Below, in pieces: positions 18,656-36,401 of a DNA stretch of 47,482 nucleotides. Position 1 is the first letter of the stretch, and every line of letters starts with the position of its first letter. Under the pieces are notes generated by a model, which did not search any database, had not been told where the DNA came from, and saw only the letters and a list, made by a program, of their open reading frames with translations. Where the stretch lies: assembly GCA_046540615.1 (NCBI GenBank), contig JBKHFA010000002.1, positions 1-47,482 on the forward strand, given 5' to 3'. This DNA is from Armatimonadota bacterium. GTDB lineage: Bacteria > Armatimonadota > Zipacnadia > Zipacnadales > UBA5352. The translations under genes and the position numbers were made by a program.

Positions 18656-19855
18656 TCACATCAGATCGAAACACGCCAGCGCGTCTTTGTTGCGGACGAT
18701 GAGCTTTCCGTCGGCCACGATCGGCGCGGTCCACGACTGGTCGCCCAGCGGCGTGAAGCGTCCAAGCTCGTTGTATCCATCGGGCGTGGCCTCGACCATC
18801 GCGAGGAAGCCCTGTTTGCCGCTGAGCGCGAGGATCACGCCGTCCACGAGGACGACGCCGCCGCGTTCAAAGCCGCTCTCGGCCCACATCTGCTCACCGT
18901 CGCTGGGGTCGAGGCAGACGAGATTCGGGTTGCTCGGGCCGTAGAGGTAGCCGTCGTGATAGACGGGAGTATTGAAGTGCGACCACATGCCCTTCGTCTC
19001 CCACGTGATGTCTGCGCCGTTCTCCCCGACGGTGATCACCGCGCATCCGCGCTTGTAATTGCTGGTGATGAAGACGTGGTTGTCTGACACGATCGGTGTT
19101 GCCGCATTGACATCGTATGAAGTCTCCCACGGCACACGCCAGAGCAAACTGCCATCGTCGGCATCGACGCCGATGACGGATTTCCCGGTGAAGACCACGT
19201 ACTGAGGGGTTCCGTGGATGGTCGCTTTGACCGGCGTGGCGTAGCCGGGGATGTCGCTGCCGCCGCCCGTCCAGATGACTTCGCCGGTCATCCTGTCGAG
19301 CGCGGCGACACAGGCATCCTGTCCGCCCGGCACGATGATCAGCTTCTCCCCGTCGATCAGCGCGGACATCGCGTAACCCCACTTCGGGGTCACGCCGTCG
19401 AACTTGCCGGGCATGTTGACGCCCCAGATAATTTCGCCGGTCTCCGCATCGATGCAGGCGACGTTGCCCTTGAAGCTGACGGTGTAAAGGCGGCCGTCAT
19501 GATAGACGGGGGTGGAGCGGGAGAAGCCGTAGTTCGCCTTCTCGAGATCGTTGTACCTGCACTCCCAGACGTCGTCACCGGTCTCCAGGTCGATCGCGCG
19601 CACGACGTCCTGCTGGCCCTCGTGGTCGATGATGAAGACCTTCCCGTCCGCGACGGAGGGGCCGGCGTAGCCGTTGTCATGCATCTGCACCTGCCAGAGC
19701 TTCTCAGGCGGGTTGTTGTCCCAGTCCTTGTTGATCCCCGTGTCAGGCGCGGTCCCGTCCTGGTTGGGGCCGAGCCAGACGGGCCAGTCGGCCGCGAAGA
19801 CGGTAGCTGCCACGGTCAGGCAGGCGATGATCGCGAGCAGTCGAGTGACGCGCAT
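18656..19855 (-). CDS. secreted PQQ-like (BamB-like) beta-propeller repeat protein
   Basis: Signal peptide MRVTRLLAIIACLTVAATVFA, then DWPVWLGPNQDG. Repeated blades of the type DGKVFIID..G..VVRAIDLETGDDVWE. C-terminal TAPIVADGKLIVRNKDALACFDL. GGAGGG lies 8 nt before the ATG. Confidence 0.8.
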   Translation of the reverse strand: MRVTRLLAIIACLTVAATVFAADWPVWLGPNQDGTAPDTGINKDWDNNPPEKLWQVQMHDNGYAGPSVADGKVFIIDHEGQQDVVRAIDLETGDDVWECRYNDLEKANYGFSRSTPVYHDGRLYTVSFKGNVACIDAETGEIIWGVNMPGKFDGVTPKWGYAMSALIDGEKLIIVPGGQDACVAALDRMTGEVIWTGGGSDIPGYATPVKATIHGTPQYVVFTGKSVIGVDADDGSLLWRVPWETSYDVNAATPIVSDNHVFITSNYKRGCAVITVGENGADITWETKGMWSHFNTPVYHDGYLYGPSNPNLVCLDPSDGEQMWAESGFERGGVVLVDGVILALSGKQGFLAMVEATPDGYNELGRFTPLGDQSWTAPIVADGKLIVRNKDALACFDLM

Positions 19856-19889
19856 GTTTGTTGTCCCTCCGTGCTGACGGTTTGTGGCG

Positions 19890-21110
19890 TTATCCGAAGC
19901 AGTAGATGGTGCCGCCTTCGGTGCCGATGACGAGTCGGCGCTGACCGATGGCGGGTGATGCGCTGATGGCTGAACCGGTGTTGAAACTCCACGCCGTCCG
20001 CCCGTTGCTCAGGCCCACCCGGTAGATATTGCCATCTGATGAGCCGAAGATTACGTGCGAGCCGTTGATCACGGGTGAGGAGTTGACGTCGCTGCGGGCC
20101 TGGGCGCTCCACTGCACGTTGCCGGTCGCTGCGCTCACGCGGAACGCGCGGTCGCTGCGCGAGGCGAAGATGACGGCGTCGCCCATGACGGCGGGCGCGG
20201 CGTAGATCGCGCCGGTGCGCGATTCTTCCCGCCTGTCCCAGAGAATCTTCGCGTCTGAGAGGCGCACCGCCCAGTAGCGGCCATCCATCGATCCGACGTA
20301 GACGGTGCCGGACGCGTAGGCCGGGGCGCCCGCGAAGTTGCCGCCGAGTTGCGCCGCGCGAACCTCCCGGCCGGTCTGCAGGTCGATCATGCGGAGCAAG
20401 CCGTCGCAGCCTGCTATCATGACAATGCCCGCGGCCTCGGTCGGGGTGCAATGTACCTGCGCATCGGCCTCGAAGCTCCAGATCTCGGCGCCGGTGCTGG
20501 TGCTCAGGCGGTAGAGATGATTGTCATACGAGCCGAAGAGCACCGAATTGCCCACGTGGATCGCCGAGGAGATTATCCTGTCGCCGGTCTCGAAGGTCCA
20601 TCGCTTCTTCCCGGTCGCAGCGTTGACGGCGTGGAATGTGCCGCCCTCGTCGCCCACGTAGACAGTACTGCCATGAAGAAGCGGGGCGGCGGAGATCGCG
20701 TTCCCTTCGGTGAGGTACTTCCACTTGAGCGATCCGCTGGCGAGATCGATCGCGAGCAGCGCTCCGGTCATCGTGCCGACGTACGCGCGGTTGCCGACGA
20801 TGGCGGCGCTGGATTCGACGGAGGAGCCGGTCTCGTAGGTCCACCTGACCGCGAGGTTGGGGCTGAGCGGTGAGTGTGCGACGCCGGTGTTCTGCGCCTT
20901 GCCGCGGAATGTCGGCCAGTCGCCGCCCGTCTCCGCGAAGGCGCAGGAGGAGAGAAGCAAGATAGCCACGGCGAGAATCGTGGCCCTTCGGCAACGAGCA
21001 TTCACGCCGTTCGTGGGGCAGGCATTCCTGTCTGCCGCCCTCGCCGCCGGCCGCTGCCTGACGGCATGTCGCTCGTCGCTCGTCGCCGATCTCTTCTCCA
21101 TCCCACTCAC
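19890..21110 (-). CDS. secreted PQQ-like beta-propeller repeat protein
   Basis: Hydrophobic leader ILAVAILLLSSCAFA, then DWPTFRGKAQNTG. Repeated G.vYVG...G.L.A.D..tG...W blades. ATGA overlap with the upstream permease gene supports the start at 21110. Confidence 0.8.
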   Translation of the reverse strand: MSGMEKRSATSDERHAVRQRPAARAADRNACPTNGVNARCRRATILAVAILLLSSCAFAETGGDWPTFRGKAQNTGVAHSPLSPNLAVRWTYETGSSVESSAAIVGNRAYVGTMTGALLAIDLASGSLKWKYLTEGNAISAAPLLHGSTVYVGDEGGTFHAVNAATGKKRWTFETGDRIISSAIHVGNSVLFGSYDNHLYRLSTSTGAEIWSFEADAQVHCTPTEAAGIVMIAGCDGLLRMIDLQTGREVRAAQLGGNFAGAPAYASGTVYVGSMDGRYWAVRLSDAKILWDRREESRTGAIYAAPAVMGDAVIFASRSDRAFRVSAATGNVQWSAQARSDVNSSPVINGSHVIFGSSDGNIYRVGLSNGRTAWSFNTGSAISASPAIGQRRLVIGTEGGTIYCFG

Positions 21111-24100
21111 TCCGTCCTCAATGCGTCGATCAGATCGCCGCGAACCGTCGCTCGGGCCCCGATTGCGCAGGCCGCGAGACCGACCGCCAGCACCGCCAGA
21201 AGCACCGCGACCAGCGCCCCCCAGTTCACGCTGGCCTGCGCGGAGGCCAGGTGCGGCGCCACCGAGATCAGCGCGGTGACTGTCCCGACAAGCATTCCGG
21301 CGATCAGAAGCCCTGCGTTTTCGACGAGCACCAGGCGCGTGAGGTTCGCCCGGGTGAAGCCCGTGGCGAGCATCAGCGCGAACTCCCCGCGGCGTTCGAA
21401 GGCGCTGCGGAGGATCACTGCGACGAGGCCGATCGTCCCCAGCAGCAGGCCCAGTCCGCCCAGCGCAAGGAACATGCTCAGGTAGGTGTTCTGCACCGTG
21501 ATGAAGCGGGTGAGCACCTCACGCGTCTCGCGCACCTCAAGCCCCATGTCTCCCAGCGCCGACCGCAACGCATCCGCGACCTCGTCCTCGCGCGCCTCCG
21601 GGGCGTCAATGAGGAAGTAACTTGGCCCCGCGATTTCCGGGTAGATCGCCCTGAGCGCATCGGCGTGGATGAGTATCTCGCTTTGAAAGATTGACCCACC
21701 GAGAGCGCCGACGAACTGCAGCGGCGGCCGATCGCCGCCTGCGTCATACACTTCACCGACCGCCGAATGAAGCTGCCACTGGAGGCTCGCGTTGTCAGTG
21801 ATGGCACCGACCGTGCGTGACGCCGAGTCTTCGCGAAGAAGCGTCCACGGGTTACCAGCGGCCTCCCCCGAGGTCGATGTGAAGGTGAAGCCGCCGCGTT
21901 CGATCATCTCGTCGGTGACGCCCAGCAGGCGGGGGAGGGAGGTCTGCGCGATGTTCAGGCATGAGATGTCCTCGCCCGGACTCCGCGGCAGGGAGATGAT
22001 CTCAACGCCATCCAGCGCCTCCTGCTCCTCGGAGAGGAAGCCAAGGTTGTCCCGGCCCTCCCTGGTGGCGGGATCGAAGCGCAGCGGGACCGATGAGGTC
22101 GCGATGAGCGCGAAGCCGCCGGTGCCCGACGAGCGGTCATGCACGTCGATCGCGGAGAAGTCTCGCGAGTTGGCCGCGACCGTGACGATCACGAAGGTCG
22201 CCGCCGCGATCAGCCCCAGGAGCAGCAGGCTGCGTCCACGCGCGGACGCAGCTGAGCGAAGCGCGAAGAGACGCTGCGACCGCGTGGCCCCGGCCCGATG
22301 CATCGCCCCTGTCAGCAGCAGATGGGCCCCCGTCAGCGCCGCCAGCAGCAATGCGCCGCCGATGGCGAAGAACGCTCCCTCCGCCGGGATCGCCTCAGTG
22401 ACGGTCGCGGCGAATATGCCGACGGCGGCGACCAGCAGCACCGGTGTCGCGATCGCGGTCCAGGGCCGACCCGTCGCGGGATCGGTCGCCGACGCACGCC
22501 AGCCTCGCAGCAGTTCCAGCACCGGTCTCCCGGAGAGCACCCGCGCGCCCCACCACGTCGCGAGCACGCCGACGACCAGTGCGGAGAACGCTCCGATGGC
22601 GACGCTCGCAGGCTCCACGTAGACGCCCAGCACCGGCGCGTCGCCGAGCGCGCCCTGCCAGCGCGTGGCGAGCGCGCCGATGATCGCGTGGGCGTAGCCG
22701 ATCCCGAGCGGCGTTCCGAGCAGCACGCCGACCAGCGACAGCGCCACGCCCTCGGCCGCGATCGCACGCCCGGCCTGCTTCGCTTTGAAGCCGGTGGCCA
22801 TCATGATGCCTGCCTGCGAGGCCCGTCGTTCTGCGGAAAGGCGCATCAGCGTGCCCGCCAGACCCGTGCCCGCGAGCACGAGGAAGAAGCTCATCCCGAG
22901 GAAAAGCTGGCCGAAGTCCGAGGTGCCCTTGCTTGCGGCCAGCGCCTGCTCGCGGACGCGCATGAAGCGGAAGCCCGCGTCCTCGGGCTCAAGCTCTTCG
23001 CGCAGCGCTTGCTCATACTCGTCCGCGTCAGCGCCATCAAGGCGCACTGACGTGATCCACGGTCCCTCGCCGTCCTCGCCCTGCCACATGCGCTGGAGGA
23101 GGGAACTGCTGACAAAGGCCTTCGGCGCCGCGCGGTAGCGCTCCCAGTATTCATCGTCGCGCTCGGTCACAAGCGACAGGTCCACGGGAAAGGGCGGGTC
23201 CCACTCGTCGATGTGCCCGGCGTCAGTGATTCCCTCGAAGTCCGGCACAAGGTCCGGCTCGGCGCCGAGGCCCTGCATCTCCGCGATGCCGGTCAGTGTC
23301 AACTCCGCCGAGCGGTCCTCGTAGCCGGACGGCGTGCTGACGCGCCAGGTGACGGCGAAGCGCTCGCCAACCTCCGCGTCGAGGTCCTGCGCGGCCCACG
23401 CGTTGAGGATCAGGCCGTCCACCGGGCCTGCTTGCCGCGACCGCAGGGGAAGTTTCTTCGACGACACGTCGGTGACGACTGCGTAGGCAATCTCCCGGGA
23501 CGGGTCGTCAGCGGCGGTGATCGTGTCTGCGAGGTAGACGGACGTCGGCGAGATGCCGCGTTTCGTCGCCGCCTCGATCGCTCCGACCTGCGCCTCGTTG
23601 AGCACCACTGCGTCGCTGAAGACCGACAGCCAGGCGCCGTGCCGACGCAGATAGAGTCCGTGGTCGTCGAGCGTCACCGCGCGGTTGATTCGTCCGTGCA
23701 GTTCCGCGCCGGCCTCCGCCCCGACCACGATCGTGTTCGCGCGTCCAGGCTCGCCAATCTGCTGCGCCAGCCACTCGCGGTCCACGATCACGTTGCGCGG
23801 CATCGCCGTGGAGGGGTCGAGGCGGAAGCCGCCGGGGCCGAGGTCGGGCAGGATATCCTGCACGGTCACGCGAAGCGTCGCCAGCGTCTCATCGCGCTCG
23901 CGGCGAGCGAAGAGCGTGTCCACCATCGCTTCGCCCGGGCGGGAGATGGTGACGAGCAGCGTGTCTCCCGCGTTGACACGGGCGGCAGTCGCGAGTGCTT
24001 CGTTGATGAGGGCCGAGCGTGGCTCAGGCGTATGCGTATCCGAGTCGGGGTAGAGGCTCAGGAGGTCATCGTCCGCTCCGATGACGGTGATACCCGCGAC

Positions 24101-24397
24101 GACTGCGTCGCCGCCCTCGGCGCGCGCAGAGCCCTCAGCCTGAATGAGCGTCGCGGCGGCGCCTCGGAGATCGGCATCGTGGCGAAGATCTGCGCGGAAG
24201 AAACGTGGGGCCGTGACTGCGTCGTGAATCTGACCGAGTCGCGCCAGCGCGGTGTGCCGGATCGAGCCTTCGATGGAGTCGCCGATCACCAGTGAGCCGA
24301 CGATCACCGCCGCCGCGATCGCCAGGCCGACCACCACCACCGCCCCCGTCCGGCGGTAATGCACCAGGCTGCGGAGGACCAACCGCGCGAGGGTCAT
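21107..24397 (-). CDS. large double-FtsX ABC transporter permease (MacB/LolC type VII-like)
   Basis: 1096 aa. N-terminal TM (GAVVVVGLAIAAAVIVGSLVIGDS), then a ~450-aa periplasmic domain and a TM bundle. This is followed by a second periplasmic domain and a second C-terminal FtsX-type bundle (..FITVQNTYLSMFLALGGLGLLLGTIGL..). 4-nt overlap with the ATPase gene. Confidence 0.8.
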   Translation of the reverse strand: MTLARLVLRSLVHYRRTGAVVVVGLAIAAAVIVGSLVIGDSIEGSIRHTALARLGQIHDAVTAPRFFRADLRHDADLRGAAATLIQAEGSARAEGGDAVVAGITVIGADDDLLSLYPDSDTHTPEPRSALINEALATAARVNAGDTLLVTISRPGEAMVDTLFARRERDETLATLRVTVQDILPDLGPGGFRLDPSTAMPRNVIVDREWLAQQIGEPGRANTIVVGAEAGAELHGRINRAVTLDDHGLYLRRHGAWLSVFSDAVVLNEAQVGAIEAATKRGISPTSVYLADTITAADDPSREIAYAVVTDVSSKKLPLRSRQAGPVDGLILNAWAAQDLDAEVGERFAVTWRVSTPSGYEDRSAELTLTGIAEMQGLGAEPDLVPDFEGITDAGHIDEWDPPFPVDLSLVTERDDEYWERYRAAPKAFVSSSLLQRMWQGEDGEGPWITSVRLDGADADEYEQALREELEPEDAGFRFMRVREQALAASKGTSDFGQLFLGMSFFLVLAGTGLAGTLMRLSAERRASQAGIMMATGFKAKQAGRAIAAEGVALSLVGVLLGTPLGIGYAHAIIGALATRWQGALGDAPVLGVYVEPASVAIGAFSALVVGVLATWWGARVLSGRPVLELLRGWRASATDPATGRPWTAIATPVLLVAAVGIFAATVTEAIPAEGAFFAIGGALLLAALTGAHLLLTGAMHRAGATRSQRLFALRSAASARGRSLLLLGLIAAATFVIVTVAANSRDFSAIDVHDRSSGTGGFALIATSSVPLRFDPATREGRDNLGFLSEEQEALDGVEIISLPRSPGEDISCLNIAQTSLPRLLGVTDEMIERGGFTFTSTSGEAAGNPWTLLREDSASRTVGAITDNASLQWQLHSAVGEVYDAGGDRPPLQFVGALGGSIFQSEILIHADALRAIYPEIAGPSYFLIDAPEAREDEVADALRSALGDMGLEVRETREVLTRFITVQNTYLSMFLALGGLGLLLGTIGLVAVILRSAFERRGEFALMLATGFTRANLTRLVLVENAGLLIAGMLVGTVTALISVAPHLASAQASVNWGALVAVLLAVLAVGLAACAIGARATVRGDLIDALRTE

Positions 24398-25089
24398 GCC
24401 CGGTCAGGCGCCCCTTCCCACGGCTCCAGCGTGCCCTCAGTCAGCAGCAGCCCGCGGCCCAGCAACTCCGCCTGACGGGTGTTGTGCGTGACCATCAGCA
24501 CCGTGACGCCGTCCTCGGCGAGTTCGCGCAGAAGCGCCACGAGTCGGTCGCCACTCTCACGGTCGAGGTTGCCCGTCGGCTCATCGCAAAGCAGCAGCGC
24601 AGGCTCATTGATGAGCGCCCTTGCCGCCGCCACGCGCTGGCGCTCGCCGCCCGACAGCCGTGCGGGGAATGCGTCCGCGCGGTCGGCGACACCCACGCGC
24701 TGCAGTAACTCCGACGCGCGGCCCTCGGCGCCTTCGCCGGCGCCGGCGGCCAGCGTCGGCAGCAGCACATTCTCCGTCGCGGTCAGTTGCGGGAGGAGGT
24801 GGTGGTCTTGAAAAATGAAGCCGACGTCGCCGGCGCGGTAGGCCGCAAGCGCCTCGCCGCCGAGGGATGTCACGTCCGTGTCTCCGAGGTGGACCGCGCC
24901 CGACGTGGGCCGGTCGAGCGAGCCGATGATGTTCAGCAGCGTGCTTTTGCCCGAGCCTGACGGCCCGAGGATCGCGACCGTCTCGCCCGGCTGCGCTGTC
25001 AGCGACAGCCCGTCGAGCACACGCTTCGCGCCGCAGGGCGTGTCATACTCCTTCGTCAGGTCCTCCACTGTCAGCGTCCTCGTGCTCAT
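24394..25089 (-). CDS. ABC transporter ATP-binding protein (MacB/LolD-like)
   Basis: Walker A GPSGSGKST, signature LSGGERQRV, Walker B LLLCDEPTGNLD. Start is ATG 25089 (MSTRTLTVEDL) or ATG 25116. Either overlaps the tail of the upstream gene. Confidence 0.9.
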   Translation of the reverse strand: MSTRTLTVEDLTKEYDTPCGAKRVLDGLSLTAQPGETVAILGPSGSGKSTLLNIIGSLDRPTSGAVHLGDTDVTSLGGEALAAYRAGDVGFIFQDHHLLPQLTATENVLLPTLAAGAGEGAEGRASELLQRVGVADRADAFPARLSGGERQRVAAARALINEPALLLCDEPTGNLDRESGDRLVALLRELAEDGVTVLMVTHNTRQAELLGRGLLLTEGTLEPWEGAPDRA

Positions 25090-26668
25090 GCTCCTCAGCC
25101 GCCTCCTCCGCCTCATCCCGCAACACGATCGCGCCGGTCGGGCATGCCTCCGCGCACTCCACTGCCGCCCGCCGCAGTCCCTCCGCGATCGTTGCGCCGA
25201 GCGGGACCGCTGTCCGCACGTCGAAGCCCCGTCCGACGAACGTCAGTCCGAGTTCGTCCTCGTACTGCCGGGCAATCTCCACGCAGAGACCGCACGCGAC
25301 GCATTTCCCCGGCTCGAAGATGATCGCCGGGTGGGTGGCATCGCGGCGGAAGCGCCGGCGGTCTCCCGGATACACTCGCGTGCCGGCGTCATACTGCTCA
25401 CTGACCGCTCGCAGACGACAGTCACCGAGCGCGCGGCAGTCGCAATGCATGCATCGCAGACCCTCGCGCACGGCCTCCTCGTCGTTGAAGCCCGCGGTCT
25501 CGCCGCCGGACGGCTGCAGTCGCTCGTGCTCGCTGGCGTCGGCGGCCATCCGGGCCGCCTCATCAGGCCGCAGGCGCCCGAGATTCACGTTGAAGGGCCG
25601 CCGCTCGGCCGCGATCTGCTCGTCGCGAAGATACTGATCGATCGCCAGCGCCGCCTCGCGAGCTCCCGCGATTGCCCGCACCGCCAGCTTCGTTGGACTC
25701 TGCGCCGATCCCGCCACGAAGACGCCATCCAGCGGGCTCTCGTGACTCTGCTGATCGGCCTCCAGTCCGCGTCGCGCGTAAGCGAGCCCAAGCGCCTGCG
25801 CCGACTCTTCGTCGGTCTCGCCGATCGCCAGCAGCACCGCGTCGAACTCATCGCGCAACTCGTCCAGCGTCAGATCGATTCCCAGCCGCGTCTCGGCGCG
25901 CAGTTCCACGCCGAGGTCCAGGATCCTCGCTGCCTCCGCCTGCGTGACCTCCGGTGTGAGGTCCGTCGCGGCGATCTCCCGCAGGCCGCCACCCGGCGCG
26001 TCGCGCTCGTCGATCAGCGTCACCGCATGCCCGATCAGCCGCAGGTAGTACGTCGCGCTCAGGCCCGCAGGGCCTGCGCCAACGACGGCGACGCGCTTTC
26101 CGGTCGCCGATCCGGACTCAGGCCGCGTCGCTTTTCTGTCGGGGTCGCGATCGCCCACCCACCGCTTGAGGAGGCGGATTGCCACCGGCTCGTCGTGCGC
26201 TCCCCGTCGGCAGGTGGCCTCGCACGGAGCAGGGCAGATGCGTCCGAGGACAGCCGGCAGCGGGATGCGCGCGCGCACGGTCTCGACTGCTCCCGCGAGG
26301 TCGCCGGCGACGATCTGTCGGATCATCAGCGGAATGTTCATCCCCGCCGGACACGCAAGCTGGCAGGGACCGAGGCAGTCCCCGAGGTGATCCGAGAGGA
26401 GCAGCTCGAGCGCCATCCGCCGCGCCTCGCGGACCTCCGGGCACTCGCTCTCGACGACCATCCCGTCGCGAACCTTCGTCGCGCAGGATGGTCGGAGACG
26501 CTGGCCGCCGTCGATCCTGACCACGCACACCATGCACGAAGTCTGCGCGGGCAGACCCTCGCGATGGCACAGCGTGGGTATCTCCACGCCGATCTTCCTC
26601 CCGGCCTCGAGGATAGTCGCTTCCTCAGGCACCGTGACCGATTGTCCATCGATGGTGATCGTTGGCAT
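25043..26668 (-). CDS. 2Fe-2S / GltD-like FAD-NAD(P) oxidoreductase with C-terminal ferredoxin domain
   Basis: N-terminus MPTITIDGQSVTVPEEATILEAG...CHREGLPAQTSCMVCVV (NuoG/HydA-type 2Fe-2S). GltD small-subunit FeS region CLGPCQLACPAGMNIP...CPAPCEATCRRG. Dinucleotide fold VAVVGAGPAGLSA. C-terminal CMHCDCRALGDC, CVACGLCVEIA...CAEACPTGAI. Confidence 0.8.
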   Translation of the reverse strand: MPTITIDGQSVTVPEEATILEAGRKIGVEIPTLCHREGLPAQTSCMVCVVRIDGGQRLRPSCATKVRDGMVVESECPEVREARRMALELLLSDHLGDCLGPCQLACPAGMNIPLMIRQIVAGDLAGAVETVRARIPLPAVLGRICPAPCEATCRRGAHDEPVAIRLLKRWVGDRDPDRKATRPESGSATGKRVAVVGAGPAGLSATYYLRLIGHAVTLIDERDAPGGGLREIAATDLTPEVTQAEAARILDLGVELRAETRLGIDLTLDELRDEFDAVLLAIGETDEESAQALGLAYARRGLEADQQSHESPLDGVFVAGSAQSPTKLAVRAIAGAREAALAIDQYLRDEQIAAERRPFNVNLGRLRPDEAARMAADASEHERLQPSGGETAGFNDEEAVREGLRCMHCDCRALGDCRLRAVSEQYDAGTRVYPGDRRRFRRDATHPAIIFEPGKCVACGLCVEIARQYEDELGLTFVGRGFDVRTAVPLGATIAEGLRRAAVECAEACPTGAIVLRDEAEEAAEEHEHEDADSGGPDEGV

Positions 26669-26753
26669 TGTCAGCGATCAGCTTCCGGCGGCCGGCTACC
26701 AGCAACGGCGAGCGAACTCCGTCCAGCCTGCCGCCGATGCCTCTGCCGTGCCC

Positions 26754-26814
26754 TTTTCCCTCTTCACTTTTCCCTCTTCACTTTTCCCTCTTCACTTTTC
26801 CCTCTTCACTTCAC
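26754..26814. repeat. perfect 14-nt x4 tandem repeat (TTTTCCCTCTTCAC; GTGAAGAGGGAAAA on the coding strand) plus a partial unit
   Basis: Units at 26754-67, 26768-81, 26782-95 and 26796-809, then TTCAC. The array spans the stop codon (26792-94) of the NuoEF-like gene and most of the spacer before the next gene. Confidence 0.9.
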
Positions 26815-29179: not shown

Positions 29180-29187
29180 CTCGGTGC

Positions 29188-31422
29188 TCAGAAGTCCACG
29201 TCCTTCGGCTCAGCGTCTTCTTCCTCGTCGGCGTCCTCGTCTTCGCGCCCCGCAGGTGTTTTTGCCGGCTCCTCCGGCCGATCGGCGGCGCTGCCGTCCG
29301 TCTCGGCCGGCGTCGTATCAAAGGGGCTACCCTCGGCGGGATCCTCGTCACCTTCATCATCGGTGGGCGCCTGCTGCTGCTCATCCGCCGGCTGAGATTC
29401 CGGTTCGCCGATGCGGTAGAGCGTAGTCTCCCCGCGGATGAACACGCTGCCATCGACGAAAGCAGGCGTGGCATCCGCCGGTTCGCCGAGCGACACGCTG
29501 CCGAGATGCTCAAACTCGCTGCCGGTCGCGAAGAAGTGCATGACCCCTTCGCGGTTCATCAGCCAGATGCGATCGCCGACGATGGTGGGGGAGGAGTAGT
29601 ACATCCCGTCCGGCAACTCCTCCTCCCAGACCGGCTCGCCGTCGGCCAGCGCGAAGCAACTCATCATCCCGAAGCTCGCCACCACGTAGACGTGTGTCCC
29701 GTCGCTGACCGGACTGGCGGTGTCCGGCATTGTGCCGGGAGCCTCCCACTGCACATGCGTCTCGGTCACATCGCCTTCGCCGTCGGGGCGGATCGCAACG
29801 AGGTCGGTCCCGTCATTGCATGCGATGACAAGGCCGCCGGCGTAGATGGGCGACGGTCCGACGTCGCCGAAGAGGACATCGGCCCGCCAGATCTCCTCGC
29901 CATCTTCGGGATCATACGCGATCACCCACGGGTCCGCGGCTGTGATGATCTGCGGCTCGCCGCGGTGCTCGATCACGATCGGCGTAGACCACGAGTTCGG
30001 CGTCTCACGCTCGGTCTCCCACACGCGCGAGCCGTCCTCGACGTTCAGGGCCACGATGCTCGACAGGTCGTCATCCGCCTCGCCCTGATCGAGCAGTACG
30101 ATCAACATGTCTTCGTACACCGTCAGCGAGGCCGCGTGACCGTACATGTTCTCCAGCGGTCCGGTCGCGCGCGTCCACAGCTCTTCTCCGTCGAAGTCGA
30201 ACGCCGCGATGTCGCCGTTGGCGAAGCTGGCGAAGACGCGCTCGCCATCGGTCGCCATCGTGGGCGCCGCGTAGCCGGTGTCAGCTTCAACATCCGGCGG
30301 CTCATCTTCTGCGCTCAGTGCGTTCACAACCGTCCGCATCCAGACCATCACGCCGCTCTCCGCGTCGTAGGCGTAGACCTGGCGCGTGTCCTCATTTGCA
30401 CCGGTGAGGAAGACGCGGTCGTTCCACACGAGCGGCGAGGACTTGCCCTGAAGCGTGATCGGGCTGCTCCAGGCGACATCCTCTCCGCTCTCGACGTCCC
30501 AGTCGGTCAGATAGTCGCCCTCGGGCGCGACCCCCGAGCCGTGAGGGCCGCGAAAGCGCGGCCAGTTGCGCTCGTACTCAAGCTCGGCGTCGGTCAGTTC
30601 CGCCGGCGCGCCGCCTGCTCCGGGAGGCCCGGGTGGTCCCGCTGGGCCGGGCGGTCCCTGCTCACCGGCAGGTCCTGCCGGCCCGGCAGGGCCGCGCGCA
30701 CCCGCTGGTCCCGGAGGCCCGGGAGCTCCGGGCTGTCCCGGTGCTCCCGCCTGTCCCTGCTCGCCCTGCGGCCCCGGAGGCCCCTGAGGACCGATCAGCG
30801 CCTGCCGCTCGGCCTCCGCCTCCGCCGCGAGGTCGGCCGCCTCCGCCGCCTCGACGTACTCCGCGACCGCGTCATGCCTCGCGAGCACCGCGAGAGTAAT
30901 CAGCAGTCCGCCAAGCACCAGCGCCATCACCAGCACAGATCGGCGCGCGAGCGCCGTCGCGAGGATCGGCTCCTCGACCGCGTCCGGGTTGGGCGTCGGT
31001 CCGGGAGAGGCGTAGACCGCCGCGTAGCGCACCGACAGCAGCAGCACCGCGATGCCGCCCAGCAGCATCAATGCGCCCTGCACCGCGAAGCGTCGCGTCC
31101 GGAAGTACTGCTCGCGCAACTGCTGGTCCAGCGAGCGGATCGTCTGCAGCGTTTCAATATCCGGTGCCCCGGGCTGACGATTCAACTCCGCTCGGAGCTG
31201 CTCGATCTGCGCGGGGGCGGTCGGATCGGCGCTGTGCGCCCGGATCAGATTCGCCATCATCAGCGCGAACACCGCGGCCACGAACACAGCGGACACGATG
31301 GCCAGCCGCGTCGCCAGCAGATAACGCCAGCCGTGACGCCTGCTGTCAGCCGATTCCGCGGCAGGCACGCTCTGACGGTCCACCGTCTGCTCTGAGTTGT
31401 TCCTGACCGTGTCCTCGCTCAT
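29188..31422 (-). CDS. membrane-anchored collagen-like-repeat / PQQ-like beta-propeller protein
   Basis: 744 aa. Three hydrophobic helices in aa 33-180, an Ala/Glu coil, then about 20 uninterrupted GXY triplets. This is followed by [11 protein letters not shown] and a beta-propeller with blades ([25 protein letters not shown] etc.). It ends in a 72-aa acidic tail. Confidence 0.8.
30613..30792 (-). repeat. collagen-like GXY triplet repeat coding region (aa ~211-270 of the 744-aa protein)
   Basis: [60 protein letters not shown] read directly from the translation. The DNA is a GGN-CCN-rich periodic tract. Confidence 0.85.
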
Positions 31423-32723
31423 TCTTTATTCCGAGTCGGGTACACCGACTTCCCGGCCTTCCGTGCCGTCTCGATGGGGCAGGAGGCGTAACACCGCCCG
31501 CATGACACGCAGCGCGCCGGGTCAACCTCGTAGTGCTCGCGTGTGCGCCGGAGGGAGACGGCGATGAGCTGCCAGGCCACGACCAGTCCGATGAACCCGC
31601 CCAGCACTGTGCTCCCCGTGTTGAACTGTCGCTTAATTTCGGCGGCTTCGCGGTAGAGCCCTCCCGTCGGCAGCCCCAGTTCATAGAACGCTTCGGACTG
31701 CTCCGTGGTGCCCTCAACGATGCCCTGCTCCTCAACAAAAACGCGCGCGGCGGTCTGCACCGTCTGATTCATCCCCGCAAGGTAGTCGCTGCCCATCTGC
31801 CCGAGCCATGCGCCGAGGCCGATCATGACCGGGAATGACAGAATGATCGCAGCCAACGTCCAGCGCCCGGTGGTCGGCGGCTTCGAGCGATCCTCGCTGG
31901 TCGGCGGCCGGATCGCGTTGTAAGGACAGGCATCCGCGCAGAGATGACAGTTGATGCACTGATCCCCACCGAGCTGCACGTGCCAGGCCGACAGCGGCGC
32001 CGTCACCCGGAAGAGCGCCGCCAGCGGGCAGAGATAGCGGCAGTAAGGCCGGCCGATGAAGACACCGATCAGCAGCAGGATGCCGCCTGCGATCAAGACG
32101 TGCGTAGGTCCGCCGAGCCTGAAGAACGCGACGTAAGGATCGTAGCGGCAGATCAAAAAACCGCTGTCCGTCCAGGCAAAGAGCGCGGCCACGCCGAGAT
32201 ACACGAAGGGAATGATCCCCAGCGGCCGCTCCAGCCACTCGGGGACGCGAAGCGGCTTGATCAGCGTCATCTCCTGCACCGCGCCCAGCGGACAGACGGC
32301 CGCGCAGAAGACGCGCCCGAATGCAAGCGCAACCAGCAGCGGCAGCAGGAAGAACAATCCCACCGTCACCGGGAGCGTGTACTCAGCCGGTCCGATCGCC
32401 AGCGCGACGTTTTGAATTGCGCCGATCGCGCAGATGCAGCCCTCGCGGTAGAAGCCGAAGTAAAGCAATGCGAAGGCGACCAGCAGGAATATGTACGTAC
32501 GCTTTTTCACGCGCAATGAAAGCCATGCCGCCATCCCCAGCGTCGCCGCCAGCACCGCGACGTCGATCCACTCAAAGAGCGTGTCGCGCGGAGACGGCGT
32601 GCGCACCTCGGGGAAGCGGTAGTCGAAGCTGAACTCAGGCGGAGGAAAGCGCTCGGCGGCAAGCGCCACCACGGGCGCCAGCACCGCAATCACAAGCAGC
32701 AGCGGCAGCACGCGGCGAATCAT
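31419..32723 (-). CDS. NapH/MauN/NosH-like integral-membrane polyferredoxin
   Basis: Multiple TM helices with membrane-proximal CxxxCP motifs ([26 protein letters not shown]) plus CICAIGA. Two 4Fe-4S motifs ([28 protein letters not shown]) are separated by two further hydrophobic helices. ATGA overlaps occur at both ends. Confidence 0.75.
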
Positions 32724-33487
32724 ATCTGCGTTGTCCCCGGCTCGTTCGTCGACGTGTCCCCCTGACCGGGGGCGGGGAAGTCCGAATCCGGAGCGCCCTC
32801 AGAGGGCGACGCCTGATCGGGGCCGGCAGACTCTGGCGGCGATGCCGGCTCAGACGAGGGCTGCTGATATGCCCCATCGGTTGGACGAGACGCCGACTCG
32901 GCGCTCTCCTCTTCGTCATCCTCCTCCGCGAGCTTAATGCTGGGGAGCAGGTAGGGCTCATCCGCCGGCACGCGTACAAACGCGTCCGCCGGACACTGCG
33001 CGGCGATGGCGCACTCGTTGCAGTCAACGCAATAATTGTGACGTACCTGCATCACCAGTGAGCCGTTGCCGTATTGACGACAGCCCTCGACGCAGATCGC
33101 GCAACCTATGCACTTCGGCTCGTCGATCAGGTACTCGTAGTAAGGCTCCTCCACGAAGTTGCGTATGATCGCGTCGGTAGGGCAGCGCATGTTCTCCGCG
33201 GTCTCTTCGTCCCCGGGACGCACTTCGGCGAAGAATCCGAAGCAGAAGTCGCAGAAGCCGCAGATCTCCACGTCGTGCACACACCGCGCCGCCGAGGGTG
33301 TCAGAACGCAGGCGGTCGCGCAGTTGCCGCAGGCAATGCACTTCTCCGGATCGATCTGCCAGACGAGGTCGTCGCGTTCGCCTTTCGCGGCCACCGCGCC
33401 GACGCCGACGCCCAGTCCAAGAGCGCCGACCGCCCTCGCGACGGCCCGGAGAAAGCTTCTGCGGTCCATGCCGCGTTCGTCAGTCAT
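32720..33487 (-). CDS. TAT-exported NapG/MauM/NosG-like poly-[4Fe-4S] ferredoxin with low-complexity acidic tail
   Basis: Twin-arginine signal MDRRSFLRAVARAVGALGLGVGVGAVA. Four cluster motifs: CIACGNCATAC, CGFCDFC...CPTDAI, CIGCAICVEGC, CVDCNECAIAAQCPADAF. 69-aa Ser/Pro/Glu/Asp tail. Confidence 0.8.
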   Translation of the reverse strand: MTDERGMDRRSFLRAVARAVGALGLGVGVGAVAAKGERDDLVWQIDPEKCIACGNCATACVLTPSAARCVHDVEICGFCDFCFGFFAEVRPGDEETAENMRCPTDAIIRNFVEEPYYEYLIDEPKCIGCAICVEGCRQYGNGSLVMQVRHNYCVDCNECAIAAQCPADAFVRVPADEPYLLPSIKLAEEDDEEESAESASRPTDGAYQQPSSEPASPPESAGPDQASPSEGAPDSDFPAPGQGDTSTNEPGTTQI

Positions 33488-33732
33488 CAGCTACTCAGCG
33501 GCTCCTCACCGGTCGCCGGATAGGTCTCAGTGTCCGACTTCGGCCGTCTCTGCAGACGAACAATCCGTGCTTCAGATTCCTCGCAATCATCAAGCTCGGG
33601 ACATCCGCGGCAGGCGCCGTTGGTCCAGCACGGCTTCCCCGAGCCGAACGCGAGCCAGCCGGTGCCGCCGGCGAGCAACACTCCCGCGATCCCGCGCGCG
33701 GCGGATTTCAGAAAGTCGCGTCGGTCGCTCAT
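33487..33732 (-). CDS. 81-aa TAT-signal, Cys-rich small protein (novel; hidden inside the 178-aa track ORF)
   Basis: MSDRRDFLKSAARGIAGVLLAGGTGWLAFGSGKPCWTNGACRGCPELDDCEESE... has a twin-arginine motif plus an h-region, then C-x5-C-x2-C-x5-C. ATG 33732 overlaps the upstream TGA (ATGA). Its own TGA overlaps the next ATG (TGATG). The upstream 97 codons of the track ORF are Arg-rich and overlap the NHL gene. Confidence 0.6.
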   Translation of the reverse strand: MSDRRDFLKSAARGIAGVLLAGGTGWLAFGSGKPCWTNGACRGCPELDDCEESEARIVRLQRRPKSDTETYPATGEEPLSS

Positions 33733-34712
33733 CTGTCTCCGGCCTCCTGCGCCGTCTCTTCGTAGATGCGAACGATGTCTCGGTGGGGATCGAGCACCGC
33801 GACGCGCCCGGATGGATCGATCGCGAGGTCGATCCCTACGCTGCTCCTCGCGAGCTTCCCGGGCGGCACGACCACCGAGAGCAATTCTCCGTCCGTGGAA
33901 TACACCTTCACTCGGGGAAGGCCCTTTTCTGAGGTGACCACGCGCCCGTCGGGCAGCACGGCGATGTCCGTCGGATTGCAGCAGCCGCCGAAGCCCTCGA
34001 CGTCGTTGCCGACTCGCCTCCACGAGTTCACGAGCGCGCCGTCCGTCCGGGAGTGTATCTGCACCGCAAGCCGTCCCGGGTTGGACAGCCAGAGGTTGCC
34101 GTCAGGACCGGTCGCCACGTCAAGGTGGGGGCTGGGGATGGAAAGCGCGGGGATTCCCCGCTCCGGATCCATCCCGGCAAACTCGCCGAGCAGGTTCCCG
34201 GTGCCGTCATAACGCAGGATCCTCCGGCTGCCCGCGTCTGCGACGAATCGGTCGTCAGGCCACGCCGCGATCGACGTGATCCAGGTGTTCTCCCCCTCGG
34301 GCGCCAGCGTCATGAGCAGTTGCCCCGACTGATCGTACACCTCCACGCTCTGTCGCGTTCCCACGAGGATCGTGCCTTCGGGATCGACAGCCACGCAGGT
34401 CGGCTCCCCGCCGACCGGGAGTTCCCACTCAACCTGCCCGTCGGCCGTCATCTTCCGCACGGCCTCATCGCCGGCGACGTAGAGCGCGCCGGGAGCGTCG
34501 AACGCGATGGCCGTGGCCTCCGCGAAGCCCGGATCGATCTCACCCACCGTCTCCCACGTGAGCAACTGCTCAGGCACGTGGCTGGCTTCCGCCTGCGACG
34601 CGACATTCTCAGCTTTGACCGCCACCGTCTGCTCGATGATCTCCTGCCGCTGGGGACAGCCGCTGAGAGCAGTCGCCAGCAACGCGATCGCCACGAGTGC
34701 GCGTGACGTCAT
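33729..34712 (-). CDS. NHL-repeat six-bladed beta-propeller lipoprotein
   Basis: Lipobox MTSRALVAIALLATALSGC. Six repeats of the NHL type (ATAIAFDAPGALYVAGD, PTCVAVDPEGTILVG, ITSIAAWPDDRFVADAGSRRILRYD, LDVATGPDGNLWLSNPG, PTDIAVLPDGRVVTSEKG..VKVYS, IDLAIDPSGRVAVLDPHRDIVRIYE). Confidence 0.75.
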   Translation of the reverse strand: MTSRALVAIALLATALSGCPQRQEIIEQTVAVKAENVASQAEASHVPEQLLTWETVGEIDPGFAEATAIAFDAPGALYVAGDEAVRKMTADGQVEWELPVGGEPTCVAVDPEGTILVGTRQSVEVYDQSGQLLMTLAPEGENTWITSIAAWPDDRFVADAGSRRILRYDGTGNLLGEFAGMDPERGIPALSIPSPHLDVATGPDGNLWLSNPGRLAVQIHSRTDGALVNSWRRVGNDVEGFGGCCNPTDIAVLPDGRVVTSEKGLPRVKVYSTDGELLSVVVPPGKLARSSVGIDLAIDPSGRVAVLDPHRDIVRIYEETAQEAGDR

Positions 34713-36367
34713 GGGTTTCTCACATCCACGCAGATCATCGTCTCGCGGTCGCGAATGACCAGCTTGCCGTCCGCAAACGCCATCGGCGCCCAGGCATCCG
34801 GGCCGGGAAGCACCTTCGCGCGGGCCATCTCGTTGTACCCGGAGGTTGTCGCCTGCGCCATCACGAGCGTCCCGTCATCGCTGAGCACGTAGATTTTTCC
34901 GTCGGCCATGAGGAAGGGGCCGATCCCGAAGCGCGCGGTGTGTCCGCTCTCCCAGACGCGCTTGCCCTCGAGGTTCAGGCAGACAAGCTGACGGTCCATG
35001 CTCACGCCGAAGAGGTGATTCTGATGGAAGATCGGCGTATGCTGATGGGAGCCGAAGATGTTCTGCGGGATCTTCCACACCTGCGCGGGGGTGCCGCCCT
35101 TCACCGACAGCAGCATGCTGCCCGCGCCGTAGCCGCCGGTGAGGAAGATACGCTCGTTGCCGACGGGCACCGGCGTCGGGACGTTCGCGGTGTTCACGGT
35201 CCAGTTGGGATACTTGAAGACGATCGAGCCGTCGTTCGCGTCGATGCCGACGACGCCGCCGGAAGCCGGATAGACGTAGACTTCCCGCCCGCCGATCTGC
35301 GCGGGCATGATGGAGGCGTGGGTCATCTGCCAGCCGTCCGGGTTCGGCGCCTCCCACTCGACGGTGCCTGAGGCGACATCCACCGCGATCATGAGCGACT
35401 TGCCACCGGGCGCGAGGATGGCCCTGCCGTTGTCGATGATCGGACACTGCCCGGCGTACCAACTTGGGATCTTCGTGTTGTATGTCTGCTTGAGATCCAC
35501 CTGCCAGACCACGTCGCCGCTGTCGGCGCGCGCGCAGGTTACATGGCCCATCGGACCGAGGGCAACGACGTAGCCGCCGGCGACGGCGGGGACGGTGCGG
35601 GAGATTCCGTGGTTATCCTTGATCTGCACCGCGTACGACTGCCGCCAGATCTCACTACCATCCGCAAGCGACAGGCAGCGCAGGGTGTCCTCGCGGGCCT
35701 TTTGATCGTAGTCGAGCACGTACACGCGGCCGTTGGCGATCGCCGCGCCTGCGTGGCCCGGTCCGAGCATGTCCTTCGACCAGACCTTGCGCGGGCCGTC
35801 GCTCGGCCAGCTTGAGGCGAGACCGGACGCCTCCTGCGCGATGTTGTCGTAGCCTGAGCCACGGAAGTTCGGCCACGATCCTCCTCCACCGCCTGAAGGT
35901 GGCGCCGAGGCGGATTGCGCGCTTTCGCCGCCTGTCTGAGCGGGAGTGGAGGGCTGTGAGGGTGGGGCCGCCTGTGATGGCTGACCGTCAGCGGTCTCGG
36001 GTGATTCTGCGTCGCCCTCGGAGGCATCGGTCGCGTTCTCTTCGACTGCAGGCGGATCGTCGTTGGAAAGCTCTTCGCTGTCGGGCCTGTCGGGAAGCAC
36101 TTCGCCGGGGCGCGGCTCAACGTCAACCGGGCGGGAGTCCCCGAGCACCCACATCCCGAGCAGGAATGCGCCGATCAGCGCCACGAGGATCGGAATCGCG
36201 ATCGCGAGAATGCGCTTCGTGCGGTCACTGTGCCGAGGAGCGGGCGCCGGCCCCTCCGGTTCCTCATCGGAAGATGGCGGATCGGGCTGATTCACGGTCG
36301 AGGGCACGCGGTCGTTGGGGAGTCGATCGCCTGTGCTCTTGCCGCCGCTCTCCATGCTTCCCCTCAC
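34709..36367 (-). CDS. membrane-anchored PQQ-like beta-propeller protein (first gene of the operon)
   Basis: Single TM (ILAIAIPILVALIGAFLLGMWVL), an ~87-aa acidic/Pro-rich linker, then SWPNFRGSGYDN and propeller blades. C-terminal WAPMAFADGKLVIRDRETMICVDV. Start is GTG 36367, or ATG 36355 preceded by GAGGGG. Confidence 0.8.
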   Translation of the reverse strand: MRGSMESGGKSTGDRLPNDRVPSTVNQPDPPSSDEEPEGPAPAPRHSDRTKRILAIAIPILVALIGAFLLGMWVLGDSRPVDVEPRPGEVLPDRPDSEELSNDDPPAVEENATDASEGDAESPETADGQPSQAAPPSQPSTPAQTGGESAQSASAPPSGGGGGSWPNFRGSGYDNIAQEASGLASSWPSDGPRKVWSKDMLGPGHAGAAIANGRVYVLDYDQKAREDTLRCLSLADGSEIWRQSYAVQIKDNHGISRTVPAVAGGYVVALGPMGHVTCARADSGDVVWQVDLKQTYNTKIPSWYAGQCPIIDNGRAILAPGGKSLMIAVDVASGTVEWEAPNPDGWQMTHASIMPAQIGGREVYVYPASGGVVGIDANDGSIVFKYPNWTVNTANVPTPVPVGNERIFLTGGYGAGSMLLSVKGGTPAQVWKIPQNIFGSHQHTPIFHQNHLFGVSMDRQLVCLNLEGKRVWESGHTARFGIGPFLMADGKIYVLSDDGTLVMAQATTSGYNEMARAKVLPGPDAWAPMAFADGKLVIRDRETMICVDVRNP

Positions 36368-36372: not shown

Positions 36373-36401
36373 TTGAAAGTTGTCCCGCGTGAGCATAGTA
36401 T
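36373..36401 (+). promoter_or_regulatory. candidate sigma70-like promoter for the plus-strand terpenoid/radical-SAM cluster
   Basis: TTGAAA (36373-78), a 17-nt spacer, then TAGTAT (36396-401), in the AT-richest part of the 250-bp divergent intergenic region. Whether this consensus applies in the organism is unknown. Confidence 0.3.

Follow-up and report, generated by a model that had tools for sequence, protein, structure and literature searches.

Two groups of published concepts come closest to the gene cluster described here, a run of twelve genes (g1 to g12) at positions 18656-36367 of a 47,482-nucleotide stretch of an Armatimonadota genome (NCBI GenBank assembly GCA_046540615.1, contig JBKHFA010000002.1, positions 1 to 47,482), hereafter the window. 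One is that of the modular NapH-like extracytosolic electron-transfer systems, in which NapH-like proteins are known as modular connectors to extracytosolic oxidoreductases (PMC8238504); the clusters of NapH itself are cytoplasmic and its partner NapG is a periplasmic twin-arginine (TAT) protein (PMC5449189). The other is the Bfu enzyme family, defined by its BfuBC core, for which membrane-bound Mbh-Bfu and Nuo-Bfu types have been predicted and 17 BfuB clades are without assigned function (PMC9304861). In the solved NfnABC complex, NADPH enters at the flavin adenine dinucleotide (FAD) of NfnA and electrons pass along clusters A7-A6-A3-A2-A1 to the B1-FMN-C1 site (FMN, flavin mononucleotide), from which they reach NAD and, via C1-B3-B4, ferredoxin (PMC11829005). 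The window cluster combines relatives of both. The reading we favor, to which we give about an even chance of being right, is that it encodes one conserved modular envelope redox system, in which a Bfu module would dock on a NapH-like transmembrane iron-sulfur (Fe-S) conduit serving propeller proteins of the envelope.

The twelve genes are consecutive open reading frames (ORFs) on the minus strand of the window, whose GC content is about 66%. An initial annotation, made from the sequence alone, had described them as co-directional genes for a cytoplasmic flavin/Fe-S module, exported ferredoxins, beta-propellers and an ATP-binding cassette (ABC) machine. Profile searches of the 12 products and 13 flanking products against Pfam (2025) and NCBIfam (June 2026) bore out all ORFs, at the same coordinates, and every domain call; none of the 12 window proteins reached an NCBIfam equivalog cut-off. 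In gene order, the cluster comprises (TM, transmembrane; PQQ, pyrroloquinoline quinone):

34709-36367, minus strand: g1, TM-anchored eight-bladed PQQ_2/BamB-fold propeller (PQQ_2, 2.6e-31; TM helix at residues 53-71)
33729-34712, minus strand: g2, six-bladed NHL propeller lipoprotein (Pfam NHL; lipobox LSGC)
33487-33732, minus strand: g3, 81-residue TAT protein (consensus twin-arginine motif SRRDFLK, four Cys; NCBIfam TAT_signal_seq at 18.6 bits, cut-off 16.7)
32720-33487, minus strand: g4, TAT ferredoxin with four 4Fe-4S motifs (Pfam Fer4 families; 17 Cys)
31419-32723, minus strand: g5, NapH-like polytopic polyferredoxin (Pfam, two Fer4_5 and two 4Fe-4S motifs)
29188-31422, minus strand: g6, propeller with three-TM anchor, collagen-like stalk and acidic tail (PQQ_2, 4.9e-26; Collagen, 1.6e-8)
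26792-29179, minus strand: g7, fused BfuC-BfuB (Pfam 2Fe-2S_thioredx, Complex1_51K, NADH_4Fe-4S and two Fer4)
25043-26668, minus strand: g8, BfuA-like Fe-S connector (Pfam Fer2_4, Fer4_20 and Pyr_redox_2)
24394-25116, minus strand: g9, LolD/MacB-type ABC ATPase (ABC_tran, 1.5e-34; probable start 25089)
21107-24397, minus strand: g10, permease with two FtsX domains and 10 TM helices (FtsX twice, 3.1e-16; 10 hydrophobic segments)
19890-21110, minus strand: g11, PQQ_2/Beta-prop_ACSF4 propeller, probable lipoprotein (LSSC; Pfam)
18656-19855, minus strand: g12, Sec-secreted PQQ_2 propeller (PQQ_2, 5.2e-33; signal peptide)

The initial annotation had called the system previously undescribed. In agreement with this, neither NCBIfam (June 2026) nor Pfam (2025) holds a family or system model for the cluster proteins, and full-text literature searches returned no description of the cluster; a paper on Bfu enzymes in Hydrogenedentota does not mention it.

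A Bfu-type module without a third-substrate site

Residues 185-792 of g7 align with residues 6-598 of the solved NfnB chain (9n5u_B, 1.4e-216), and its best solved relatives are NfnB 9n5u_B, StnB 8oh5_B, NiFe-HydB and FeFe-HydB (1e-216 to 1e-175). The protein starts with a NuoE-type 2Fe-2S domain (2Fe-2S_thioredx, 6e-50, residues 17-159), corresponding to BfuC and fused ahead of BfuB, and continues with a thioredoxin-like domain, a NuoF part with the FMN/NADH site and a C-terminal 2x[4Fe-4S] pair (Pfam Fer4_21 at residues 737-786), a type of cluster pair that binds ferredoxin in the solved relatives. It thus carries the full BfuC plus BfuB cofactor architecture of NfnABC (9n5u) and StnABC (8oh5, 9bov), from which it differs by the fusion of the two subunits.

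The g8 product resembles NfnA and StnA in its N-terminal 2Fe-2S site, in the two 4Fe-4S clusters of its GltD-type N-domain and in its NuoG-type clusters, one His-ligated and one standard 4Fe-4S (HCDC and CxxCxxC motifs present), but its FAD domain is truncated. Two stretches of g8 align with the solved chain, residues 4-286 with 6-289 and residues 269-517 with 420-674, which leaves uncovered solved-chain residues 290-420, the NADPH-binding Rossmann subdomain of about 130 residues. Furthermore, g8 stops short of the Fdh-like domain and is devoid of any catalytic domain. Unlike NfnABC and StnABC, the module would therefore have no soluble third substrate. All 46 cluster homologues share this loss of the NADPH subdomain and differ from one another in the GD motif of the FAD site. 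Four lineages have lost the Rossmann/FAD domain altogether, leaving proteins of about 360-380 residues with 2Fe-2S and 4Fe-4S motifs only:

L049, 15868-16960: flavin-less g8 homologue
L065, 15278-16400: flavin-less g8 homologue
L066, 15403-16560: flavin-less g8 homologue
L072, 15318-16450: flavin-less g8 homologue

In g8, the clusters of the NfnA mid-potential path are thus retained and the third-substrate site is gone. That g8 keeps a cluster chain with no entry or exit site of its own suggests a connector requiring a protein partner, and loss of the NADPH subdomain would leave the FMN of g7 as the sole nicotinamide site. On the strength of these alignments, g7 and g8 appear to form a Bfu-type (NfnABC/StnABC-like) module. 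A Bfu core implies ferredoxin and possibly bifurcation or confurcation, not plain NAD(P)H oxidation; the role of NAD(P)H oxidase that the initial annotation had extended to g8 as a GltD-like flavoprotein does not hold. The module also departs from described Bfu enzymes in being encoded within a membrane and periplasmic gene set, the predicted membrane types Mbh-Bfu and Nuo-Bfu not being linked to NapH (PMC9304861).

A NapH-like conduit and its periplasmic Fe-S proteins

Like NapGH, NosGH and MauMN, the g4/g5 pair combines a membrane protein having two CX3CP (Fer4_5) and two 4Fe-4S motifs, predicted to be cytoplasmic, with a TAT ferredoxin of four 4Fe-4S motifs, and the two genes are adjacent and translationally coupled. 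The differences are that g5 has a signal peptide, seven TM helices rather than four and extra invariant periplasmic Cys, and that the cluster adds a small four-Cys TAT protein (g3) and a cytoplasmic Bfu module but no Nap, Nos or Mau catalytic subunit. Membership of g5 in the NapH/MauN family was considered and rejected, as its scores (45.2 bits for TIGR02163, cut-off 213; 37.3 for NF007013, cut-off 234) lie below the cut-offs and the likeness is confined to the level of Fer4_5/Fer4 motifs. No NapG/MauM family model appears among the NCBIfam matches of g4.

Hydropathy and positive-inside counts predict a cleavable signal peptide followed by seven TM helices in g5. Among 28 sequences, the invariant Cys are C140-x3-C144-P, C228-x3-C232-P, C256/259/262/266 and C405/408/411/415; both CX3CP motifs and both 4Fe-4S motifs lie on Lys/Arg-rich loops predicted to be cytoplasmic. 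Invariant C96, C98 and C192 are on the opposite face, predicted to be periplasmic. This topology agrees with that published for NapH (PMC5449189). In the same 28 sequences we observed a periplasmic motif, E-x-F-P-P-P-E-F, just after the signal peptide (residues 24-40), with P27 to F31 invariant or nearly so; g3 or g4 may dock there. Longer g5 homologues that could suggest fusions to g4 or g8 proved to be mis-called starts.

The twin arginines of g4 are invariant in 74 of 74 sequences, as are 16 Cys making up the four cluster motifs, plus C69. The small g3 protein has the Cys motif C-x5-C-x2-C-x5-C, a spacing that we take to be like that of endonuclease III and Wbl-type 4Fe-4S sites, and probably carries a single Fe-S cluster. 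In at least 52 of 67 loci an ORF of the g3 type separates g2 from g4, and 51 of these 52 show the 5/2/5 spacing; in L041 and L003 the motif has just three Cys. Natural g3-g4 fusions occur in Kiritimatiellae and Victivallales (L041 9285-9683 and L053 1687-2001), where the TAT N-terminus and Cys motif of g3 run directly into VWQLDPAKCIQCGRC, the start of g4. Such fusions argue for physical association of the two proteins on the same side of the membrane.

The cluster also shares with the flavinylated NapH-like systems (NosR, PceC; Meheust et al. 2021, PMC8238504) the use of a NapH-like Fe-S connector from the interior or quinone pool to an extracytosolic oxidoreductase, some of those systems being paired with PQQ-type propeller enzymes. 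However, neither an FMN-binding domain nor ApbE was found in the cluster, its carriers are TAT Fe-S proteins, and its partner propellers are of the BamB and NHL types, with no recognized cofactor.

Envelope propellers

The AlphaFold2 model of g1 (pLDDT 92.6) is nearest in fold to BamB (TM-score 0.68-0.77), followed by tetrathionate hydrolase and PQQ alcohol dehydrogenases. The protein is about 50% identical across phyla, and some 30 polar or aromatic residues are invariant in 60 homologues; these include H253, R257, C308 and H350, which occupy repeated positions ahead of the first strand of successive blades. The g2 propeller (pLDDT 93) has TRIM-NHL and PknD sensor domains as nearest folds. 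Its family-specific motif F-x-G-C244-C245-N-P contains a vicinal Cys pair, which TRIM-NHL proteins do not have; GCCNP, E262 and K263 are invariant in 69 of 69 locus homologues and 51 of 51 database homologues. The g11 product matches BamB (2e-17) and tetrathionate hydrolase (2.4e-14) in the Protein Data Bank (PDB), and one to four g12-like paralogs flank the cluster in other loci.

Two family assignments were rejected. With BamB the propellers share the eight-bladed fold of g1 and, for the probable lipoprotein g11, the strongest sequence resemblance, but all score below the equivalog cut-off (TIGR03300: g11 175.7, g12 67.4, g6 65.1 and g1 52.2 bits; cut-off 285.2). Moreover, TM helices fix g1 and g6 in the inner membrane, each locus has five or six paralogs, and synteny is with redox rather than bam genes. 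PQQ-dependent dehydrogenases are no better a fit (TIGR03075, 28-69 bits against a cut-off of 480); PF01011 does not match g1, and its matches to g6, g11 and g12 cover no more than about 40-60 residues or fall short of the cut-off. By these profiles, the propellers are neither ordinary BamB orthologs, an outcome that the initial annotation had named as refuting its reading, nor demonstrably inert: its description of them as non-catalytic-looking was premature, given the invariant GCCNP pair of g2 and the invariant residues of g1.

Conservation and modularity of the cluster

More than 3,389 relatives of g5 are present in the protein collection searched and, where named, are called only '4Fe-4S binding protein', 'polyferredoxin' or 'NosR/NirI family'. 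A pattern scan using one genome per species gave at least 595 stretches with g5 relatives, the best 80 of which, with flanks of up to 10 kb on each side, were compared by tblastn with the twelve window proteins. Their hosts belong to Armatimonadota, Verrucomicrobiota, Kiritimatiellae, Victivallales, Omnitrophota, Calditrichota, Bacteroidales/Rikenellaceae, Poribacteria, Aegiribacteria, Desulfobacteraceae and, within Planctomycetota, Pirellulales, Phycisphaerae, Sedimentisphaerales, Brocadiaceae and the cultured Novipirellula herctigrandis.

The order g1 to g8 recurs in most of the 80 loci. By tblastn, 59 of 82 loci have g1-g2-g4-g5-g6 as an unbroken run, and 51 have g5-g6-g7-g8. Where the upstream flank is long enough (60 loci), g1 is found in 53, g2 in 56 and g4 in all 60; where the downstream flank is long enough (55 loci), g6 is found in 54 and g7 and g8 in 46 each. 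Flank-corrected frequencies are thus 88-100% for the core and 84% for g7/g8. In the 32 loci with both flanks complete, g9 occurs in 23, g10 in 22, g11 in 18 and g12 in 13. A WS1 bacterium with a 74% identical g5 has the same order from g1 to g10, and one 10.2-Mb genome has g1-g6 only. Median identity is highest for g7 (61%), followed by g4 (53%), g9 (49%), g8 (48%), g5 (47%), g1 (45%), g6 (43%), g2 (38%), g10 (33%), g11 (32%) and g12 (30%). The ABC module is located downstream, as in the window, in 12 loci, and upstream, as g11-GT4-g9-g10-g1 (GT4 being a glycosyltransferase gene described below), in 21; its occurrence at two positions points to a mobile but recurrent partner.

This arrangement is far beyond chance. 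The core is g1-g6, g7-g8 are a frequent add-on and g9-g12 form a mobile module. The functional coupling proposed in the initial annotation is supported by our neighborhood comparison, synteny being kept across more than ten phyla and in two arrangements; its 12-gene operon exists in the window as twelve genes but, taken as a general unit, is one lineage's arrangement.

No canonical terminal reductase or oxidase was matched in the scans of the 12 window and 13 flanking products, and neither NapA, NosZ nor MauAB, the periplasmic catalytic subunits, was found in the window. Matches to Nap, Nos, Mau, molybdopterin, cupredoxin or cytochrome c families were likewise missing among the 12 products, and the sole CxxCH sits within a ferredoxin motif of g5, all as first annotated. 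All-versus-all clustering of the unassigned ORFs of the 80 loci yielded no further widely shared gene, only antisense artifacts and rare extras, which argues that no terminal enzyme is hidden nearby in these loci. The same clustering placed sulfatase genes near six loci. In three Planctomycetota loci (L016 17011-17781, minus strand; L043; L076), a TAT-signal protein resembling flavodoxin or NADPH-dependent FMN reductase is encoded on the opposite strand between the g8 and g12 copies, and in five others of this phylum (L019, L024, L027, L046 and L059) a membrane protein of about 190 residues with Cys-rich motifs CPFCERHGTMCCPCGYG ... CTHCPQKESCPW lies beside the g12 copies.

The ABC pair and the divergent module

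In NCBIfam, g9 resembles LolD and DevA, its scores for LolD (TIGR02211, 209.6 bits) and for the MacB ATPase (201.4 bits) both being below the equivalog cut-offs, and g10 has a partial match to the ADOP family. With its LolD/MacB-like ATPase and its double-FtsX permease of 10 TM helices and two large periplasmic domains (about 459 and 234 residues), the pair is built like type VII ABC systems (MacB/LolCDE/FtsEX/YbbAP, BceAB-like), an architecture that suggests mechanotransmission rather than transmembrane transport. It differs from them in several respects. The PDB matches of g10 are weak and confined to the FtsX TM regions (5xu1, LolC), so that its periplasmic domains have no detectable relatives there; and a membrane-fusion adaptor of MacA/HlyD type is absent from the window genes scanned, with no extra gene family common to many of the 80 loci. 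The pair is, moreover, always embedded with propellers and GT4. In the Pfam scan of g10, FtsX alone was returned, with no match to the MacB periplasmic core or to any other family in either periplasmic domain. Of the 'MacB-type' label first given to it, the FtsX and LolD-like domains therefore stand, while no MacB core or adaptor was detected.

The system extends past 18656-36367 to a GT4 and radical-SAM/terpenoid gene set on the opposite strand. Seven genes, assigned with Pfam and NCBIfam, make up this divergent module (36618-46312, plus strand):

36618-37520, plus strand: Fer4 protein
37517-39010, plus strand: B12-binding radical SAM protein
38845-40827, plus strand: squalene-hopene-cyclase-like protein with a DADDTA motif
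40847-42334, plus strand: PQQ_2 propeller with a coiled-coil insert
42171-44114, plus strand: DUF116-polyprenyl synthetase fusion
44118-45032, plus strand: prenyltransferase-type alpha/alpha toroid
45032-46312, plus strand: GT4 glycosyltransferase

Homologs of the module adjoin the g1-g8 cluster in L005, L007, L010, L017, L035, L049, L056 and L069 and, in part, in L061, L063, L070 and L074. Counting loci other than the window, at least eight have homologs of the Fer4, radical-SAM, cyclase, propeller and polyprenyl-synthetase genes in the divergent arrangement, and in Phycisphaerae/Sedimentisphaerales loci these genes follow g8/g12 or are found upstream, on the opposite strand. For GT4, homologs are present in 19 loci, and in all 14 examined in detail they lie between g11 and g9. 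At least 12 other loci thus show a link between module and cluster, in two arrangements, and survival of the linkage through rearrangement suggests a functional tie.

Beyond the cluster, the window also encodes a CobA/CobO/BtuR corrinoid adenosyltransferase (9878-10519, minus strand), possibly relevant to the B12 radical SAM enzyme; a 1312-residue GH42/CBM4_9 glycoside hydrolase (12624-16562, plus strand); and, just past the hairpin described below, a metallohydrolase of the DUF3604/CehA-McbA family (16692-18530, minus strand), of which tblastn found no homologs in the related loci.

Gene junctions and transcription signals

Start and stop codons overlap by 1-4 nucleotides at seven junctions (g1/g2, g2/g3, g3/g4, g4/g5, g5/g6, g9/g10 and g10/g11), not at six as first counted. 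At the remaining junctions we find an 8-nucleotide gap (g6/g7), a 123-nucleotide spacer (g7/g8), an overlap of 47-74 nucleotides (g8/g9) and a 34-nucleotide gap (g11/g12). The start of g1 is likely the ATG at 36355, which has a GAGGGG ribosome-binding site in front. Two candidate transcription signals frame the cluster:

36395-36423, minus strand: sigma-70-like promoter match, TTGACT-17-TACTAT, in the 250-nucleotide divergent intergenic region 5' of g1 (consensus match only)
18591-18625, minus strand: terminator-like hairpin followed by a T-rich tract, 3' of g12 (-27.6 kcal/mol; z = -2.6 against shuffles)

The hairpin after the last gene had been noticed in the initial annotation; further terminator-like matches in the window, internal terminators included, show no excess over the shuffle expectation, and Rfam found no regulatory RNAs in the window. 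A perfect 14-nucleotide tandem repeat of unit CTTTTCCCTCTTCA on the plus strand (26753-26811; 4.2 copies, 100% matches) covers the stop codon of g7 and the beginning of the g7-g8 spacer. Read on the coding strand, it consists of repeated purine-rich GAAGAGGGAAAAGT units.

Proposed mechanism and alternative explanations

We infer that the 'third substrate' of the g7/g8 Bfu enzyme would be the cytoplasmic 4Fe-4S pair of g5: g7/g8 would dock on g5, and the mid-potential branch (g8) of the g7 core would feed the cytoplasmic clusters of g5. Electrons may then cross g5 via its CX3CP and periplasm-facing Cys sites, possibly with a quinone site as well, and pass into a five-cluster wire in the periplasm, to which g4 would contribute four clusters and g3 the fifth. 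The wire would deliver to the membrane-tethered propellers, the most likely end point being the vicinal Cys pair of g2, acting as a redox-active disulfide beside the g3 cluster in the fashion of ferredoxin:thioredoxin reductase; the conserved central pocket of g1 may be an alternative end point. In that reductase, the Cys pair adjoins a 4Fe-4S cluster, and in DsbD electrons cross the membrane. The likeness to both is one of working principle, cytoplasmic reducing power being brought to a Cys pair, with no relationship of sequence or fold; the redox activity of the g2 pair is putative. With a Bfu core as donor, NADH and reduced ferredoxin would be confurcated and low-potential electrons (about -400 mV) sent outward, although the reverse is also possible. 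The LolD/FtsX pair, g11, g12 and GT4 would be a positionally mobile accessory module that has this envelope assembly, or else a lipid-linked substrate, as its target. The transmembrane electron conduit first proposed for this locus is the most economical reading of g3, g4, g5, g7 and g8, but NAD(P)H oxidation by g8 is no longer part of it.

Several observations weigh against a docked system of this kind. Six of the 32 fully flanked loci have no g7/g8 nearby, and Novipirellula herctigrandis has g1-g6 alone amid unrelated genes, so that the core can work with a different donor, for which menaquinol, as in NapGH, is plausible. Among g5 homologs no fusion to g8 was found, and PDB searches returned no solved structural relative of the haem-less, NapH-type membrane part of g5. 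The folds of g1 and g2 resemble binding scaffolds (BamB, TRIM-NHL), and their neighbors are of the scaffold type only. Finally, a pure redox model leaves the tie to the GT4, ABC and terpenoid genes unexplained.

The core lacking g7/g8, in L003, L051, L054 and L075, is consistent with g4/g5 acting as a NapGH-like quinol dehydrogenase, as NapGH is established to be (PMC5449189), carrying menaquinol electrons to a periplasmic propeller assembly. The g7/g8 proteins would then be undocked and merely co-regulated, as a soluble Bfu enzyme providing, for example, reduced ferredoxin to the neighboring B12 radical-SAM enzyme, and the conserved neighborhood of the Fer4 protein and radical SAM enzyme fits this. 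However, the mid-potential branch of a free g7/g8 without a third-substrate site would have nothing to pair with, no role would be left for the cytoplasmic 4Fe-4S pair that is invariant in g5, and g6-g7-g8 adjacency is kept in 46 of 55 loci, through rearrangements; we regard this explanation as unlikely. Electrons might also flow inward: Bfu enzymes are reversible, with a third substrate normally between NADH and ferredoxin in potential (PMC9304861, PMC11829005), and NapH-like systems occur with the periplasmic PQQ alcohol oxidase ExaA (PMC8238504). One or more of the propellers g1, g6, g11 and g12 would then be cofactor-bearing periplasmic oxidases or hydrolases of a low-potential substrate, such as a reduced sulfur compound, whose electrons would pass from g3/g4 through g5 to g8 and be bifurcated by g7 onto NAD+ and ferredoxin. 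That PQQ_2-fold propellers can be enzymes, with tetrathionate hydrolase among both fold and sequence matches, and that g1 has many invariant polar residues are in accord with such a scheme; yet we recognized no PQQ, haem, Mo or Cu site, g1 has no match to the PQQ-dehydrogenase families and g6, g11 and g12 only short-stretch or sub-cut-off ones, and the neighboring ORFs point to no candidate low-potential substrate, all of which makes it quite unlikely in our view.

An envelope-biogenesis machine could be indicated by the GT4 gene, found in 19 loci and placed between g11 and g9-g10 in each of the 14 looked at closely, together with the linkage of radical-SAM, cyclase and polyprenyl-synthetase genes, seen in at least 12 loci and two arrangements, the likeness of g9 to LolD and DevA and the BamB fold of g1. 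GT4, polyprenyl synthetase, cyclase, FtsX-type ABC and BamB-fold propellers would make and export, or mechanically remodel, a glycoconjugate of lipid-linked or terpenoid type or else a protein assembly of the envelope, with redox chemistry serving a maturation step only. We hold this to be decidedly improbable: no other parts vary as much in occurrence or are as weakly conserved as the ABC and GT4 genes, the g1-g6 core is also found where these are missing, and a step that is only accessory would hardly warrant the expense of five periplasmic Fe-S clusters. As for a chance juxtaposition of a Bfu enzyme, a NapGH-like pair, an ABC transporter and miscellaneous propellers, the modules are indeed separable in some genomes, but an order conserved in 80 loci across more than ten phyla, the start/stop codon overlaps and the fusion of g3 to g4 in two lineages contradict it, and it is hardly credible.

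Significance

The NapH-type conduit and the Bfu enzyme are known kinds, and the assembly as a whole has a substantial chance of representing an envelope machine of a new type. A bolder version, possible though doubtful, is that of an unrecognized widespread machine in which a bifurcating core is plugged directly into a haem-free Fe-S conduit and brings very low-potential electrons to the periplasm. There, the vicinal-dithiol NHL lipoprotein and the BamB-fold propellers would subject an envelope or lipid-linked substrate to a novel type of redox chemistry, to which a type VII ABC mechanotransducer and a dedicated glycosyltransferase/terpenoid pathway would be mechanically coupled.

If the docked system is real, g7/g8 would be the first Bfu-family enzyme to have a membrane electron conduit as its third substrate, in place of a Complex-I/Mbh module or a soluble molecule. 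The cytoplasmic Fe-S clusters of NapH-type proteins, which have long lacked an explanation, would gain an identifiable cytoplasmic partner, and electron crossing by the haem-less NapH/NosH/MauN proteins would become directly testable. At least one host, Novipirellula herctigrandis, is in culture, making genetics feasible, and the invariant GCCNP motif of g2 and the conserved pocket of g1 offer targets for mutation. Hundreds of species carry the conserved system of 6 to 19 genes, among them abundant polysaccharide degraders of the Planctomycetota, Verrucomicrobiota, Kiritimatiellae, Bacteroidales and Armatimonadota.

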